IMG/VR virus record: IMGVR_UViG_3300011013_000008
Location: 1-64,000 of that record
From: a virus
Direction: 5' to 3' (one strand)
Length of the DNA stretch: 64,000 nt
Position numbers and translations under genes: made by a program. Below, piece by piece: positions 1,489 to 17,141 of this stretch (its first letter is position 1; the number at the start of each line of letters is the position of its first letter). The notes under the pieces were generated by a model. It saw only the letters and a program-made list of their open reading frames with translations, did not search any database and was not told the origin of the DNA.

Positions 1489-1517
1489 ATTATATCACAA
1501 GTTTTGTAAAAAGTCAA
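1489..1517 (-). promoter_or_regulatory. sigma70 promoter
   Basis: minus strand TTGACT-17-TATAAT. Confidence 0.8.
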
Positions 1518-1677
1518 GCAATTTTTTACGAATTGTAAAAATAAATATTTAAAAATCGTTAAAAGAATTTTCTAGAATTTATTTATATTTTTATTTCTAG
1601 AATCTTATTATACTATAGTATCGGGGTAATGGTCAAGAAGTTCTAGTTTGGCACTTTTAGTGCTTAATAAAAAACAC

Positions 1678-1707
1678 TTGACAGATTGCCCCGGTATGTA
1701 GTATAAT
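1678..1707 (+). promoter_or_regulatory. sigma70 promoter upstream of the cassette array
   Basis: TTGACA-18-TATAAT. Confidence 0.8.
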
Positions 1708-1731
1708 ATATCTTTAAATGAGAGAAATTTA

Positions 1732-1854
1732 ATGAATTTTTATAATGGTGACTGTGAAATCTGTAGAGAATATTCTAGTGAAAGAGATTGTTACTATGTT
1801 GAACTTGGTAGAGAGCTTTATCTATGTCCTTCTTGTCTAGAAGAAATTTTATAA
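1732..1854 (+). CDS. small Cys-rich (CxxC..CxxC) protein
   Basis: 40 aa ORF MNFYNGDCEICRE...LCPSCLEEIL, directly after promoter and GAGAG. Confidence 0.55.
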   Translation: MNFYNGDCEICREYSSERDCYYVELGRELYLCPSCLEEIL

Positions 1855-1873
1855 TGTTGATTGATGCAAATAC

Positions 1874-1902
1874 GGCCAATATCGGCTTCGCCGCAAATGG
1901 CC
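1874..1902. repeat. GGCCA palindrome, copy 3 (inverted orientation)
   Basis: GGCCA atat CGGC TTC GCCG caaa TGGCC. Confidence 0.75.
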
Positions 1903-2020
1903 AAAATGAGGAATAATTTATACAAATTAAAGAAGCTCTTACTGACCTGGAATGTTTGTCAACAAAAAGGGCGAGATAGTATGGACAAAATGCCGTTGCG
2001 GGCACGTCGATTATGTGGGT

Positions 2021-2057
2021 AACTAACGATATAGATAACCGGCGTGGCTTGTTATAA
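2021..2057 (-). repeat. attC-like site 1 (internally deleted)
   Basis: AACTAAC gatatagataaccggcgtggctt GTTATAA; only 37 bp. Confidence 0.55.
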
Positions 2058-2067
2058 CCGAATTTAG

Positions 2068-2283
2068 TTGGAGAGTGAAATGCTTTTAGATGAGAAAGAA
2101 AAATTACGATTTATTGAATACTTAGAAATAACTGCTGAAAACTGCAAAGGTATAGCAGAACAAATGAGCAAAGCTGGTGGTACTGTGATGGAACAACTTG
2201 AAAAAAGAGAGAGAACAAAAGCAGCAGCTTGCTTATTGATAGCTAATGATTTAAGAAATTCAGAGCCTACAACCATTGGTTAA
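2068..2283 (+). CDS. cassette ORF, hypothetical (probable start ATG 2080)
   Basis: ORF between attC1 and attC2; GGAG upstream of ATG 2080. Confidence 0.7.
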   Translation: MESEMLLDEKEKLRFIEYLEITAENCKGIAEQMSKAGGTVMEQLEKRERTKAAACLLIANDLRNSEPTTIG

Positions 2284-2290
2284 AGATTCG

Positions 2291-2354
2291 TTATAACGAT
2301 AAAGCATCACCGGCGGCGGTTTTTTTGCCGTCCGAGTGAATGCGATTGTTATGT
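2291..2354 (-). repeat. attC site 2
   Basis: minus strand ACATAAC-AATCG-CATTCACTCGGACGGC...GCCGCCGGTGATG-CTTTATC-GTTATAA, with extrahelical bases in the first arm. Confidence 0.85.
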
Positions 2355-2381
2355 TTTTAATTACGGGAGGTTAATAGGAAA

Positions 2382-2561
2382 ATGAGAATACCTGCGCATC
2401 ACACAGCAGACGCGATAAAACACATGAATTGTTATGCAGAGATTGATGGCAAATGGTGGCTAGCAAGACCAGAGCCTTACTATAATTGGAAAGAACGATG
2501 GAAGCTTTCGTGGATGGGTTTAATAGGAAAAGCAGATGCAGTCACTTGGATCGGACAATAA
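2382..2561 (+). CDS. cassette ORF, 59 aa Trp-rich small phage protein (not in ORF track)
   Basis: MRIPAHHTAD...WWLARPEP...WKLSWMGLIGKADAVTWIGQ; GGAGG/AGGA upstream. Confidence 0.7.
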   Translation: MRIPAHHTADAIKHMNCYAEIDGKWWLARPEPYYNWKERWKLSWMGLIGKADAVTWIGQ

Positions 2562-2647
2562 ATATAATGATAGAGGTAACTGACGTATGACTAAACAAAA
2601 TAAAATAGCACCGGACGCTTCGCGTCCGCTTGAATGGCTTGTTATGA
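2562..2647 (-). repeat. attC-like site 3 (degenerate)
   Basis: ATATAAT (ACATAAC expected)...cggacgc ttc gcgtccg...tggctt GTTATGA. Confidence 0.6.
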
Positions 2648-2668
2648 GCCGATTATTGGAGATAGAAG

Positions 2669-2860
2669 ATGAGTGATTATAAATCGAGATTGATTATTGA
2701 AAGCAAAGAGTTGATGAAAAAATTAACAAAGCTGAGGGCGTTTAATTCCAGCGATGCTGTGAAGCAATTGGATGAGCGAGAGCAAAGGCTGCTTGCAGCT
2801 CAGCAGCAGGCACTGACCCGTTATTATGACATTCTTGAAACGAGACTGGCAGGTTTATAA
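2669..2860 (+). CDS. cassette ORF, crAss001_48-like small helical phage protein
   Basis: Y..RL..E..EL..KL.KL.AF ... EQ.LL..Q...L..Y..IL..RL pattern; stop codon lies inside the TAAC box. Confidence 0.65.
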   Translation: MSDYKSRLIIESKELMKKLTKLRAFNSSDAVKQLDEREQRLLAAQQQALTRYYDILETRLAGL

Positions 2861-2912
2861 CGCCTGCATAACTTGAGAGCGGAGCGAATCAAAGTTAATG
2901 CACTTGTTATAT
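2855..2912 (-). repeat. attC site 4
   Basis: minus strand ATATAAC-AAGTG-CATTAACT-TTGA..TCA-AGTTATG-CAGGC-GTTATAA (R''-L''-L'-R' layout), 58 bp. Confidence 0.88.
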
Positions 2913-2926
2913 TACGGGGGTAAAGG

Positions 2927-3145
2927 ATGAGTATTATTACTATCGGCGAACATCAGCACTTGAAAAATGAATATGTGTGCAGTTTTTGCGGTGATAAAAA
3001 CAAAATAGTTGTTGGTAGAGCATATAGCCTAGAGAGATACGACTACCCAAAAAAGCACTATATGTTTTCATACTGTGGGGATTGCGCTTTAAGGCAGGCA
3101 GAGAAGATGGTGAAAGTTGCCCATCCGAAGCACAAAGTAATATAA
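2927..3145 (+). CDS. cassette ORF, CxxC...CxxC zinc-binding protein
   Basis: CSFCG and CGDC motifs; bounded by the perfect inverted pair GTTATATTAC / GTAATATAAC. Confidence 0.75.
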   Translation: MSIITIGEHQHLKNEYVCSFCGDKNKIVVGRAYSLERYDYPKKHYMFSYCGDCALRQAEKMVKVAHPKHKVI

Positions 3146-3192
3146 CGTCGCAAATCCCCGGCTGAGGTACGCGTGAATTTGCTTTGTTATGT
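3140..3192 (-). repeat. attC site 5
   Basis: ATATAAC gtc GCAAATC...GAATTTGC ttt GTTATGT, 53 bp. Confidence 0.75.
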
Positions 3193-3221
3193 GTGACTTT
3201 AATATTAGTGAGGAAGGTAAA

Positions 3222-3473
3222 ATGAAAACAGTTTTTGATTGTGAGGGGGAATGTTTGGGAGATGAATGGGTTGATTTGTCTGGACTACAAGAAACCACTA
3301 GACATGCAATTTTGCAAATGATTTATCTCGATGAAACCGTGGATGCTTTGAACAGTAAACAGAATGAAAATGAGCTAAGAACAGTTGAGATAGTTGATAG
3401 CTGTTTTCATGCTTATGCTTCATCTTTTCGGTATGACGCAAAAGAAATGGCAATGGGTTTATTAAATACATAA
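3222..3473 (+). CDS. cassette ORF, hypothetical acidic protein
   Basis: ATG 3222 after GAGGAAGG; stop TAA inside ACATAAC box. Confidence 0.7.
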   Translation: MKTVFDCEGECLGDEWVDLSGLQETTRHAILQMIYLDETVDALNSKQNENELRTVEIVDSCFHAYASSFRYDAKEMAMGLLNT

Positions 3474-3525
3474 CGCCGAGCTCACCGGTGAGCGTAGCGA
3501 GTCCGAGTGATTGCGATTGTTAGGC
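3468..3525 (-). repeat. attC site 6
   Basis: ACATAAC gccga GCTCACCGG tgagcgtagcgagt CCGAGTGATTGC gatt GTTAGGC, 58 bp. Confidence 0.85.
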
Positions 3526-3550
3526 AAATTTTATTTAACTGGAGATTATA

Positions 3551-3739
3551 ATGAATAAAAAAACGCAACAAACTTATTCTATTAATATTGGCAACAATGC
3601 TCATACTGGAAAATTAGAGTATACAGGTACTACAGAAAGTATAGATGCTTTAAAGGGCTTAGGTAAGCGTATTCAAGTTTCTTTTAAAATTGATATAGAT
3701 GGTCATCCTTACAATGTAAAAACAAAGGTATTATTTTGA
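3551..3739 (+). CDS. hypothetical protein
   Basis: GGAG RBS, 62 aa. Confidence 0.6.
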   Translation: MNKKTQQTYSINIGNNAHTGKLEYTGTTESIDALKGLGKRIQVSFKIDIDGHPYNVKTKVLF

Positions 3740-4449
3740 AAATTAAACTAATAAGTGATTTACACTTAGAATTTGGCAGCTCTTTTGCTTTTAAACCTCA
3801 ACTAGATACTGTACTAGTTCTAGCAGGAGATATTCATACTAATATAGAAATGATTGATAAATTCATTTCTAGAACTGTACCAAAGTTTAAAGCTGTAATA
3901 ATGGTAGCAGGTAATCATGAGTTCTACCATATAGAATACTATAAAATGCTTGATCTGTTAAGTAAGATTAAATATGACAACTTTCACTTTTTACAGAGAC
4001 AAACTGTAACTATTGAGGATGTAACTTTTATTGGTTGTATTAGTTGGCCTAAACCAAGTATAAATACTTGGCTACAAATATCAGATAGTAGATTAATTAC
4101 AATTGGTAATACACGAGCCACTGCTCAGGATATTGCTAGACTTAGTGATACTAATAAAGCATGGCTTAAATCAAAAATATTAGCTACTAGAGATAAGAAA
4201 GTTGTGATAACTCACTTTGGCCCAGATGAATCATTATGTTCTGGTGAGTTTAAGGGTAATAGTATTAATGATTACTTCTGGAACAAAGATTATCAAGCTT
4301 ATTTCAAATATGTTGATGCTTGGCTATTTGGACATACTCATTCTAGTGTTGATACTTATATAGATGGTTGTCATTGTGTTTGTAACCCTTATGGATACTA
4401 CAATAAACTTGTAAACAAAAACTTTAATTCAGGAGAAATAAATGTGTAA
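3736..4449 (+). CDS. calcineurin-like metallophosphoesterase
   Basis: SDLH, AGD, GNHE, THF, GHTH motifs. Confidence 0.9.
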   Translation: MKIKLISDLHLEFGSSFAFKPQLDTVLVLAGDIHTNIEMIDKFISRTVPKFKAVIMVAGNHEFYHIEYYKMLDLLSKIKYDNFHFLQRQTVTIEDVTFIGCISWPKPSINTWLQISDSRLITIGNTRATAQDIARLSDTNKAWLKSKILATRDKKVVITHFGPDESLCSGEFKGNSINDYFWNKDYQAYFKYVDAWLFGHTHSSVDTYIDGCHCVCNPYGYYNKLVNKNFNSGEINV

Positions 4450-5854: not shown

Positions 5855-6718
5855 TTGAAACAGTATAAAGATTTACTACAAAGAATCCTAGATGAAGGAG
5901 AATCATCTGGTGATAGAACAGGAACAGGAACTACTAGGATATTCTCTCACTCAATGCATTTTGATCTAGCACAAGGATTTCCTCTAGTAACGACTAAATT
6001 TACAAGTTTTAGATTGATTGCTAGAGAACTATTATGGTTTATCAGTGGACGTACTAATATTAACTATCTAGTAAACAATGGTGTACATATTTGGGATGAA
6101 TGGGCTGATAGAAGTAATAACCTAGGCCCAGTATATGGTGCACAATGGCGAAATGCTAATGGTACTTACAGAAAGAAAATGCGCGACGAGTGGGTTCAAG
6201 ATGGAGTTGACCAACTGGGCAACGCTATAGAATTAATTAAACATAATCCTAGTAGTAGGAGAATTATAGTTGATTCTTGGCAAGTTAAAGATTTACCAGA
6301 CGAACAAATATCTCCGCAGGAGAATGTTGGTTTAGGCTTAATGGCTTTAGCTCCATGCCATATGATGTTTCAGTTCTTCGTATCAGAAGATAATAAATTA
6401 AGTCTACAAATCTATCAGCGTTCAGTAGATGTATTCTTAGGACTACCGTTCAACATTGCCAGCTACGCTGCATTGTTGCATATGGTCAGTCATGTAACAA
6501 ATAAAGAAGTTGGAACATTGCATTGGGTTGGCGGGGATATACATTTGTATAATAACCATAAAGACCAAGTTAATGAACTTCTATCACGAGAGCCTATGTA
6601 CTTACCAGATTTAAAAATATCTGGTAGTCATAATAGTATAGATGATATAGAATTTAATGATTTTATGTTAAATAATTACAACTATCATCCAGCAATTAGA
6701 GCTCCAATTAGTGTATGA
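5855..6718 (+). CDS. thyA: thymidylate synthase
   Basis: DRTGTGT, ELLWFI, LGPVYGAQWR, LAPCH, QRSVDVFLGLPFNIASY. Confidence 0.97.
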   Translation: MKQYKDLLQRILDEGESSGDRTGTGTTRIFSHSMHFDLAQGFPLVTTKFTSFRLIARELLWFISGRTNINYLVNNGVHIWDEWADRSNNLGPVYGAQWRNANGTYRKKMRDEWVQDGVDQLGNAIELIKHNPSSRRIIVDSWQVKDLPDEQISPQENVGLGLMALAPCHMMFQFFVSEDNKLSLQIYQRSVDVFLGLPFNIASYAALLHMVSHVTNKEVGTLHWVGGDIHLYNNHKDQVNELLSREPMYLPDLKISGSHNSIDDIEFNDFMLNNYNYHPAIRAPISV

Positions 6719-7236
6719 TAAAAATTATAGTAGGAATTTCCCTTAATAATGTTATAGGGGAGAAAGGGTCAAAAAAGCTACTTTGGAGTTCTGAAGTAGA
6801 TATGTTATTTTTTAAGAATACTACTGAAGGTGGTGTAGTGGTAATGGGTAATGATACCTATAAAACACTAGGTAAACCCTTACCTGATAGAGTAAATGTA
6901 GTATTAAGTAGGAAAGAAGAACCTGGTAAAAGAAATGGAATTATTTATTATAATGACTATAGAGAAATTCTAAAAGATTATCCTGCTTTCTGGGTAATTG
7001 GTGGAGAATCAATTTATAATATATTCTTACCCGTTACAGATGAAATTTATATTACAACTGTAAGTATAGATTTTAGAGGTAATAAAAATTATGCGATCTT
7101 TCCAGAAAGATATGTATCTAAAAACTTTAGAATGATACATGAAAGTGCAGTAATGAAGGATATTGATCGATTAAATAAACGTAATATTAACTTAATCTTT
7201 TCTAGATGGGTTAGAAGAAGAGGAGCATTGAATTAA
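6715..7236 (+). CDS. folA: dihydrofolate reductase
   Basis: NNVIG, D..FFK..T, VVMG..TY, KPLPDRVNVVLS, VIGGESIY. Confidence 0.95.
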   Translation: MIKIIVGISLNNVIGEKGSKKLLWSSEVDMLFFKNTTEGGVVVMGNDTYKTLGKPLPDRVNVVLSRKEEPGKRNGIIYYNDYREILKDYPAFWVIGGESIYNIFLPVTDEIYITTVSIDFRGNKNYAIFPERYVSKNFRMIHESAVMKDIDRLNKRNINLIFSRWVRRRGALN

Positions 7237-15960: not shown

Positions 15961-16683
15961 ATGGTAAACATTGTAGGACTAAAGTCAGACTTAAATAGCT
16001 TAGATGAATATATAAATAATGAAGATATTCCTATAAACGAAGAATATCTTATCTATACAGGCAATAATAATAAGTCTAAATACATATTCTATGTAGTAAG
16101 TATAGATAGTAATAGTATTACTGTAAAAAATGCTACACGTAGTGATAATAGAGATAGTAATTGGGTTAACAAAATAGATCCAGTAAATAAAGTACCTTTT
16201 ATTCCTGTAATTGATCTAACTAAAAAGGAATTAAAAGAAATATTAATTCCTGCAGCGTATGATAAATTAAAGCAATCTGATACATTTAAACTATGTAAAA
16301 GTAATAAACAACAAGTTAAACAACAAGAGAAACCTAAAATGAAAATTGAAAATAAAATTATGCAAAATAACACTAAAGCGGCGAAGGCTGCTGCGCAGCT
16401 AGCGGCCGGTAATGTACTTAATAAAACTATTGCAGCAAAGGTAAAACCTCAACTGCCTATGTTTGTTAAAGGTTATGCAGATCATCCTCTAGCTAATGTA
16501 GTTATTGCTAACATTGCAGCTTTTGCAGTACAGAACTTTGCAGCAGATAATGCTAAAGCTGTATGGGCGTCTAACTCGATGATGATTGCCGCTATGGCAG
16601 AGTTTATGCAATCCTTTAATCTGGAAAAAATTGTAGATGAAGTATTGTCTAGCGTTACTATTCCTGATGAAGTAGGAGAATAA
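15961..16683 (+). CDS. hypothetical protein with Ala-rich C-terminal domain
   Basis: 240 aa ORF, AAGG RBS. Confidence 0.7.
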   Translation: MVNIVGLKSDLNSLDEYINNEDIPINEEYLIYTGNNNKSKYIFYVVSIDSNSITVKNATRSDNRDSNWVNKIDPVNKVPFIPVIDLTKKELKEILIPAAYDKLKQSDTFKLCKSNKQQVKQQEKPKMKIENKIMQNNTKAAKAAAQLAAGNVLNKTIAAKVKPQLPMFVKGYADHPLANVVIANIAAFAVQNFAADNAKAVWASNSMMIAAMAEFMQSFNLEKIVDEVLSSVTIPDEVGE

Positions 16684-16687
16684 ATAA

Positions 16688-17141
16688 ATATCATTGTATG
16701 AAGTAGACAATAAGTGGGGGACACGGCGGTTCGATTCCGCCCTACTCCAGCAATAAGTATATTGGCCACTTAACAGAAATATATGTAGAGACAGATAGAG
16801 TTCACTATGAAAAACCATTCTAGACAGCGTTAAGTACCAGACTATCTCTCCTTCTACGGGTTTTTAAAATATACTTATTACTGGGGTAGAACAGGCTTCG
16901 ATCTTCTAAAGACGATATATGGACAATGCGGATTAGTACACGTTATAGTATAAAATAAATATAAAAGCAAACGATGTTACTTTTAATATTGCATTAGCAG
17001 CTTAGGCCAATAATGCGGGGTTGCTAGGAACCTGTCAACAGAATCCTAGCACGATTACCGCATCCTCTGCTAGAGGCGCTAATTGGGCGTACACACCAAT
17101 CGAGCAGGTTAAGCACAATGCAACGTCAGAACTTGTGCTTA
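16688..17141 (+). ncRNA. ssrA: circularly permuted (two-piece) tmRNA; outer ends approximate
   Basis: T arm + CTACTCC-A (16742-16749) lies upstream of the 5' end GGGGTAG-AACAGGCTTCGA (16883); G3.U70; tag GCA-AAC-GAT...=ANDVTFNIALAA* at 16967-17005. Confidence 0.9.

Follow-up and report, generated by a model that had tools for sequence, protein, structure and literature searches.

A probable attC array with five reversed one-gene cassettes in the early region of a virulent, distantly T5-like phage

Introduction

Clusters of attC sites that lack an integron integrase (CALINs) are already known from virulent phages. Qi, Rajabal, Ghaly, Tetu, and Gillings (2023; Front Microbiol 14:1091391, PMC9892861) report 17 phage CALINs, and in their account IntI1 recombined five of the six attC sites tested from virulent phages (PMC9892861). 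The parts of that paper that deal with single arrays give the virulent phages TJE1, PH101/H101, and P12002L as examples, state a minimum of two attC sites per array, and call the TJE1 and PH101 cassettes typical of bacterial arrays; polarity is not mentioned in those parts (PMC9892861). Here, we analyzed positions 1 to 64,000 (the window) of the 86-kb IMG/VR record IMGVR_UViG_3300011013_000008, in which the block at 2021 to 3525, perhaps extending leftward to 1855, is by its sequence very probably a CALIN of five one-gene cassettes, situated among the early genes of a virulent phage that is distantly T5-like. CALINs in virulent phages having been published in 2023 (PMC9892861), what this locus adds is the T5-like lineage, the phage-type cargo, and the uniformly reversed polarity.

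Like the phage CALINs of Qi et al., the array is a cluster of attC sites with single-gene cassettes in a virulent phage without an integrase. It differs from the published ones in belonging to a distantly T5-like lineage, in having five to six sites compared with the stated minimum of two, and in carrying small phage-type proteins rather than the methyltransferases that figure in the published descriptions of phage cargo. Compared with bacterial arrays, of which that of Methylobacter marinus A45 served as our reference, the attC anatomy is the same, two of the sites (IG1 and IG5, described below) fall in the same sequence family, stop codons overlap the xTAAC box, and complementary boxes flank the cassettes. 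In contrast to bacterial arrays, there is no intI gene, attI site, or Pc promoter here, and a phage promoter would serve for expression. Moreover, every cassette gene of the Methylobacter array lies on the attC top strand, whereas the genes here lie on the attC bottom strand. In this respect they resemble the reversed cassettes with their own promoters in bacterial integrons, such as toxin-antitoxin cassettes, whose genes are antisense and independent of Pc (Richard et al. 2024, PMC13108822). Bacterial reversed cassettes are, however, a minority within canonical arrays, whereas all five are reversed here, and none of the five has a promoter-like site of its own or looks like a toxin-antitoxin system.

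Results

The block at 2021 to 3525 consists of five small plus-strand open reading frames (ORFs) and six imperfect palindromes (IG0 to IG5), each opening with an xTAAC box and closing with a GTTAx box. An earlier note on this DNA, made from the sequence alone, had placed palindromes at 2021, 2291, 2562, 2855, 3140, and 3468 between five single-ORF units, and all six lie there. We scored them with models built from bacterial attC sites and containing no phage sequence: R1 was made from 5 sites of the M. marinus A45 array, and R2, a bottom-strand model, from 13 sites of the M. marinus A45 and Kuenenia arrays. The source arrays adjoin IntI genes (TIGR02249, 496 and 371 bits); in M. marinus A45, the gene scoring 496 bits adjoins an array of about 20 attC sites. 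The earlier note had proposed an attC covariance search of both strands. Run in this way without filters on the window, R2, as a surrogate model, placed IG3, IG1, IG5, and IG4 at ranks 1 to 4 (16.6 to 22.9 bits), and all five of its matches in the array lay on the plus strand with boundaries exactly those of the palindromes. A filtered R2 search of the whole record returned IG5 alone and nothing outside the array, and it also missed IG1, IG3, and IG4. As positive controls, three attC sites of Tetrasphaera phage TJE1 scored 19.5 to 29.5 bits and three sites of Pseudoalteromonas phage PH101 scored 39 to 41 bits; the sites here resemble the validated TJE1 sites in score range.

Four of the palindromes (IG1, IG3, IG4, and IG5) have the full attC anatomy of AAC/GTT cores, an unpaired central spacer of 3 to 7 nucleotides (nt), an L box, and bulged bases. 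The order of R box, spacer, L box, and variable terminal hairpin is seen in the DNA folds of IG1, IG3, and IG4 and in the model alignment of IG5, and it is absent from IG0 and IG2. The core sites of the form RYYYAAC/GTTRRRY are TTATAAC/GTTATGT in IG1, TTATAAC/GTTATAT in IG3, ATATAAC/GTTATGT in IG4, and ACATAAC/GTTAGGC in IG5; IG2 does not fit this form. The top match of the window, IG3 (2855 to 2912, plus strand, as are all six; 22.9 bits, E = 0.0015), is an intact short attC site with R box TATAAC/GTTATA, 3-nt unpaired spacers, L box TGCATAAC/GTTAATGCA, and one bulged A in the 3' arm. IG1 (2291 to 2354; 22.7 bits, E = 0.0017) is an intact site with its bottom strand on the plus strand; its L boxes fit the bacterial family GCATCACCGG...TCCGAGTGAATGC-GATT-GTTA, and sequence and fold together give unpaired bases A, A, and T at 16, 20, and 24 from the 3' end. 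IG5 (3468 to 3525; 22.7 bits, E = 0.0017), also intact and of the IG1 family, forms the right end of the foreign block. IG4 (3140 to 3192; 16.6 bits, E = 0.082, rank 4) has R box ATAAC/GTTAT, 3-nt spacers, and L box GCAAAT/ATTTGC, and it and IG3 represent two short types distinct from the IG1/IG5 family. The remaining two are damaged. IG2 (2562 to 2647; 10.8 bits, E = 3.1, rank 8) is a decayed site whose left box is ATATAAT, with AAC changed to AAT, and whose left arm is badly paired, so that most of the L-box pairing is lost; its right arm is still family-like (GCGTCCGCTTGAATGGCTTGTTATG). IG0 (2021 to 2057) is a truncated site in which a left arm of the IG1 type is joined directly to a GTTATAA right box, the right arm being missing; its positions 2024 to 2053 resemble IG1 at 2294 to 2324, and it reached 6.8 bits in a local R2 search and has no stable fold. 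Judged by these features, the array looks partly fossil, yet four of its sites (IG1, IG3, IG4, and IG5) look usable.

The right arms of IG1 and IG5 have a 20-mer in common, CCGAGTGAWTGCGATTGTTA, which occurs in 31 bacterial contigs from many phyla, whereas chance alone would give about 2. The whole hairpin yTAAC-GCyyC-GCATCACCGG...TCCGAGTGAATGC-GATT-GTTA is present in at least 22 of the 31, and in several contigs with the 20-mer the hairpin sits in an array with further R2 matches. Many family contigs have a conserved 107-amino-acid (aa) gene on the opposite strand whose stop abuts the GTTA end, which is the canonical order of gene followed by attC. Sequence identity places IG1 and IG5 in an attC family that occurs across many bacterial phyla. 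The exact 20-mer had zero matches in viral contigs. A gapped pattern for the family gave 46 matches in viral contigs, all of them rejected as chance, with neither TAAC/GTTA ends nor R2 matches, and an energy-based TAAC...GTTA scan of the window was set aside as unselective in such AT-rich DNA (324 TAAC and 397 GTTA copies). Rfam gave no match at E ≤ 10 over 1500 to 4200. To our knowledge, Rfam has no attC family, and this null result is therefore uninformative.

Two observations concern the bacterial arrays themselves. A near-identical cassette, made up of the 107-aa gene (MPQYVIVYLGGDQPSSPEEGKQH...) and an 87-nt attC site of the GCATCACCGG...CCGAGTGAATGC family, recurs in contigs assigned to many bacterial phyla, in a new genomic context each time, and on comparison of these contigs it looks unusually mobile. 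In the M. marinus array, a 437-aa ORF at 2703 to 4016 (plus strand) of its contig lies on the attC bottom strand; its position and the way it starts suggest the reverse transcriptase of a group IIC-attC intron.

We then considered the polarity of the cassettes. The recombining bottom strand of an attC site has the AAC triplet in R' and extrahelical bases on the opposite arm (Nivina et al. 2016, PMC5027507). On the plus strand of the phage, the 5' box holds the AAC and the bulged bases fall in the 3' arm, as the extrahelical bases of a bottom strand would. For each site, the plus-strand R2 score exceeded that of the minus strand by 10 to 18 bits, with minus-strand scores below 3.8 bits for IG1, 4.5 bits for IG3, and 6.2 bits for IG4. 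Read from these sequence features, the attC bottom strand is the coding strand, and all five genes are reversed relative to bacterial integron cassettes; each hairpin consequently lies upstream of its gene. None of the five genes shows the canonical cassette order, in which a gene on the attC top strand is followed by its own attC site. An integron integrase would cut at ..AA|C in the left boxes (2296|2297, 2860|2861, 3145|3146, and 3473|3474), and the mobile unit would be C, hairpin, leader, and gene, ending in ..TAA. The uniform reversal may arise because only reversed cassettes could be expressed in an array of this orientation. The earlier note's attC array in a T5-like early region stands, and gene polarity is the part that was absent from its reading. 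Among phage arrays, that of TJE1 (NC_019930, 77 to 1519) has canonical polarity by R2 and so differs from the present one, whereas in the Pseudoalteromonas phage PH101/H101 (NC_029094, 76228 to 78355) three attC bottom strands, by the same model, lie on the strand of gp133 to gp136, which is the reversed arrangement found here. Our search of the integron literature turned up no discussion of reversed phage cassettes.

The cassettes also carry the signature expected in an array under either polarity, in which the boxes flanking each gene complement each other. The earlier note had claimed this for every ORF. It holds over 12/13 positions (with one indel) for cassette 1, 10/10 for cassette 4, and 8/10 for cassettes 3 and 5, and it is poor for cassette 2. 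When the boxes were permuted, 3 of 120 permutations matched or exceeded the observed complementarity total. As had also been noticed before, the stop codons of three genes (ORF3, ORF4, and ORF5) lie inside the xTAAC box. Separately, the right box of IG1, GTTATGTTTTTAA (2348 to 2360), complements the left box of IG5, TTAAATACATAAC (3462 to 3474), at 12/13, above most cognate pairs; this match may go back to a former cassette boundary or may have arisen by chance in AT-rich sequence.

The block is compositionally foreign. Its guanine-plus-cytosine (GC) content of 0.399, compared with a mean of 0.330 (standard deviation, 0.023) across the window, ranked first among 625 segments of 1.5 kb, in agreement with the earlier impression that it is more GC-rich than its flanks. 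GC content at third codon positions (GC3) is 0.21 to 0.44 in the five cassette genes, compared with 0.12 to 0.24 in neighboring backbone genes; genes 1 and 5 are backbone-like in this measure. Composition jumps at 3525 on the right, where 3526 to 3550 has a GC content of 0.16, and near 1855 at the left edge. The block is preceded by a last AT-rich gene (1732 to 1854, plus strand; GC, 0.29; GC3, 0.12), a backbone gene of 40 aa with a CxxC...CxxC motif, whose final letters, TTATAAT, are the degenerate box that also stands on the left of IG2. Between this gene and IG0 lies a GC-rich stretch (1855 to 2020, plus strand; GC, 0.42) with a basic 52-aa ORF (1864 to 2022) whose stop falls within GGGTAAC. 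No recognizable attC site was found on the left side of this stretch, R2 giving only 5.1 bits, at 1985 to 2016. Going by composition and ORF content, the stretch could be the remains of a sixth cassette that has decayed and could mark where the insertion really begins on the left. Of the outermost boxes of the array, the left box of IG0 and the right box of IG5 have only GTTAG in common, which is too little to indicate a split resident site.

The phage record is an 86-kb contig with direct terminal repeats from a subsurface metagenome. It encodes a DNA polymerase that shares 46% identity with the enzymes of T5-like Serratia and Proteus phages, and the array falls within the early region of this virulent phage, which is distantly T5-like. 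No tyrosine recombinase was found in the whole record, and TIGR02249 had no match at E ≤ 1; the same model detected ordinary tyrosine recombinases in 14 of 14 control genomes. The absence of such a gene, noted earlier for the window, thus extends to all 86 kb. A complete integron would have intI with adjacent attI and Pc, and the record, lacking any tyrosine recombinase, does not contain one. A CALIN has at least two close attC sites with no intI nearby, and here four scoring and two decayed sites lie within 1.5 kb; in the absence of an integrase from the record, the array is classed as a CALIN. The earlier assignment to an integron-type attC array is accordingly borne out by the covariance model, the identity with a bacterial attC family, the foreign composition, and the lack of a recombinase.

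A sigma-70-type promoter that matches the consensus at 12/12 positions (TTGACA, 18 nt, TATAAT) lies upstream of the array at 1678 to 1707 on the plus strand. No plus-strand promoter-like site (threshold, 9/12) and no plus-strand terminator-like site were found within 2021 to 3525, and a Shine-Dalgarno sequence precedes all five cassette ORFs. From the upstream promoter, the lack of internal promoter- or terminator-like sites, and the genes downstream, among them one for a phosphoesterase, we infer that the array belongs to an early operon; one transcript from 1678 to 1707 would read all of the cassettes. A search of a phage genome collection gave no DNA match to the block or to the adjacent 16 kb, and no relatives of the phage were found through the phosphoesterase. 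By DNA polymerase, the nearest IMG/VR relative is 51% identical and lies on a 10.7-kb contig.

The cassette genes, all on the plus strand, look from their sequences like genes for small phage-type proteins. Gene 3 (2669 to 2860; 63 aa) is related to crAss001_48 (PF21825, E = 4.8e-16; phrog_774, E = 7.6e-16), as the earlier note had recognized. Gene 2 (2382 to 2561; 59 aa) encodes a Trp-rich protein that matches phrog_21988 (E = 1.1e-7) and has two relatives of 71 to 75% identity in short metagenome contigs. Gene 1 (2080 to 2283; 67 aa) encodes a predicted two-helix hairpin protein (helices 5 to 32 and 35 to 59; predicted local distance difference test [pLDDT] score, 93) from a small family without a Pfam entry, which has 76 cluster representatives at E ≤ 0.001. 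The gene 1 model had no informative structural match in the PDB, and the two of its matches to large proteins that were tested, one a NACHT/NLR protein and one an Ig/PKD-domain protein, were both dismissed as coiled-coil noise. Gene 4 (2927 to 3145; 72 aa) encodes two CxxC pairs and is likely a zinc ribbon, although its zinc-ribbon matches are weak; it has one relative, of 69% identity. Gene 5 (3222 to 3473; 83 aa) is predicted to form a beta-hairpin followed by one long helix (pLDDT, 76), and its close relatives (68 to 83% identity) are in short metagenome contigs. More distant relatives of gene 5 lie in tightly packed phage-like metagenome contigs in which R2 found no attC site. NCBIfam and PADLOC searches of the five proteins returned nothing significant. 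Judged by size, position, and family, the five proteins most likely act in host takeover or counter-defense.

Sequencing depth and contig breaks were read from Logan contigs of one run, which is probably the source sample. Depth is even, at 10.9 to 13.8, over four pieces that span the block and its flanks, which argues against a chimera. The contigs end with 30-nt overlaps at 2045 to 2074 (IG0), 2854 to 2883 (IG3), and 3493 to 3522 (IG5), and never in the genes between. These breaks hint at other neighbors of the same hairpins in the sample. A low-depth contig of 372 nt matches 3493 to 3538 (the right arm of IG5 plus the next 13 nt) apart from 5 mismatches and diverges immediately after ATTTAAC (3538), a RYYYAAC-like word, into another leader and ORF start.

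Discussion

We consider it very probable, as set out above, that the block is a CALIN. A host integron integrase would have put the cassettes in singly, acting on folded single strands of the phage DNA. Several observations weigh against this reading. The left end of the foreign block, at 1855, has no attC site, which is hard to reconcile with cassettes simply inserted one after another at a resident site. Two of the six hairpins, IG0 and IG2, are decayed, and the boxes flanking cassette 2 match poorly because the left box of IG2 reads AAT and not AAC. Canonical integron biology does not predict a uniform reversal of the genes. R2 is a surrogate for the model of IntegronFinder, and its E values over the whole window are modest (about 0.002) and roughly calibrated. 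The relatives of gene 5 without attC sites indicate that the cassette genes are not obligatory cassette cargo. Finally, we found no close phage relative in which a gain, loss, or reordering of cassettes could be seen.

An alternative history that is possible, if short of probable, is that a ready-made piece of an array was acquired in a single event from a bacterium or a different phage, whether by homologous or by illegitimate recombination, and no longer recombines, its hairpins now being at most RNA or DNA structures between early genes. The truncation of IG0, the loss of the AAC triplet and most of the L-box pairing from IG2, the left end without an attC site, the lack of an integrase in the phage, and the even depth (10.9 to 13.8) of the four Logan contigs across the block all fit such a fossil. 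Off-target or illegitimate recombination is, moreover, a route into phages put forward where Qi et al. discuss their origin (PMC9892861). Yet every attC feature is kept in four of the sites, and cassettes 1 and 4 still have flanks that match over 10 to 12 nt. The spread of GC3 among the cassettes (0.21 to 0.44) suggests separate origins, and the breaks of source-run contigs at three attC sites hint at alternative neighbors. A block from a bacterium should also have brought bacterial-type genes in canonical polarity, whereas all five genes here are reversed and phage-like. A fusion of bacterial integron DNA to a phage contig through shared attC words would be an assembly artifact, which we regard as highly improbable. 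Such a fusion would account for the Logan contigs that end inside hairpins with 30-nt overlaps (2045 to 2074, 2854 to 2883, and 3493 to 3522), and the attC family is common in environmental bacteria. It is at odds with the equal depth over four pieces and flanks (10.9 to 13.8), with the co-orientation of the five genes with those of the phage, with their membership in phage families (PF21825 and PHROG) or relatives in phage contexts, and with the backbone-like GC3 of genes 1 and 5.

We give even less credence to the idea that the palindromes are ordinary intergenic elements of the phage, such as terminators, RNase sites, or a phage-specific repeat, which resemble attC sites by chance. In an AT-rich phage, TAAC and GTTA are common words, shuffled sequence folds at least as well as two of the six palindromes, and Rfam had no match. 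Against this, an independent attC model has four of the hairpins as its four best matches over the 128 kb of strand searched, and IG1 and IG5 match at least 22 bacterial attC sites in 20 to 24 nt and in the whole L-box layout. Nor do T tracts follow the stems; no plus-strand terminator was called, and the block is foreign in composition.

If host integrases do act on these sites, a lytic phage would gain a ready means of swapping small early genes, and integron cassettes could travel between bacteria in virulent phages, as is proposed in the phage CALIN report (PMC9892861). A more far-reaching version of the CALIN reading, which we think unlikely, is that phages keep a pool of reversed cassettes of their own, with the hairpin first and small early or counter-defense genes behind it, exchanged by host integron integrases during infection. 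With the coding strand as the recombining one, that strand would be exposed either as the non-template strand or, provided that the early genes and the replication fork run in one direction, on the lagging-strand template. Were this so, such exposure would render the arrays of phages more recombinogenic than those of bacteria, and the present array would be a working example. The reversed polarity bears on where cassettes originate and on whether phages and bacteria draw on one shared pool or two. The five short proteins, conserved in a few metagenomes and inferred to be early, are reasonable candidates for a counter-defense screen.

Neighboring genes

Next after the phosphoesterase gene, the ORFs at 5855 to 6718 and 6715 to 7236 look, from their sequences, like genes for thymidylate synthase and dihydrofolate reductase, respectively. 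Farther along, ARAGORN called 19 tRNA genes between 9364 and 24972 of the window, together with a tmRNA-like gene (16660 to 17096) with the tag ANDVTFNIALAA.

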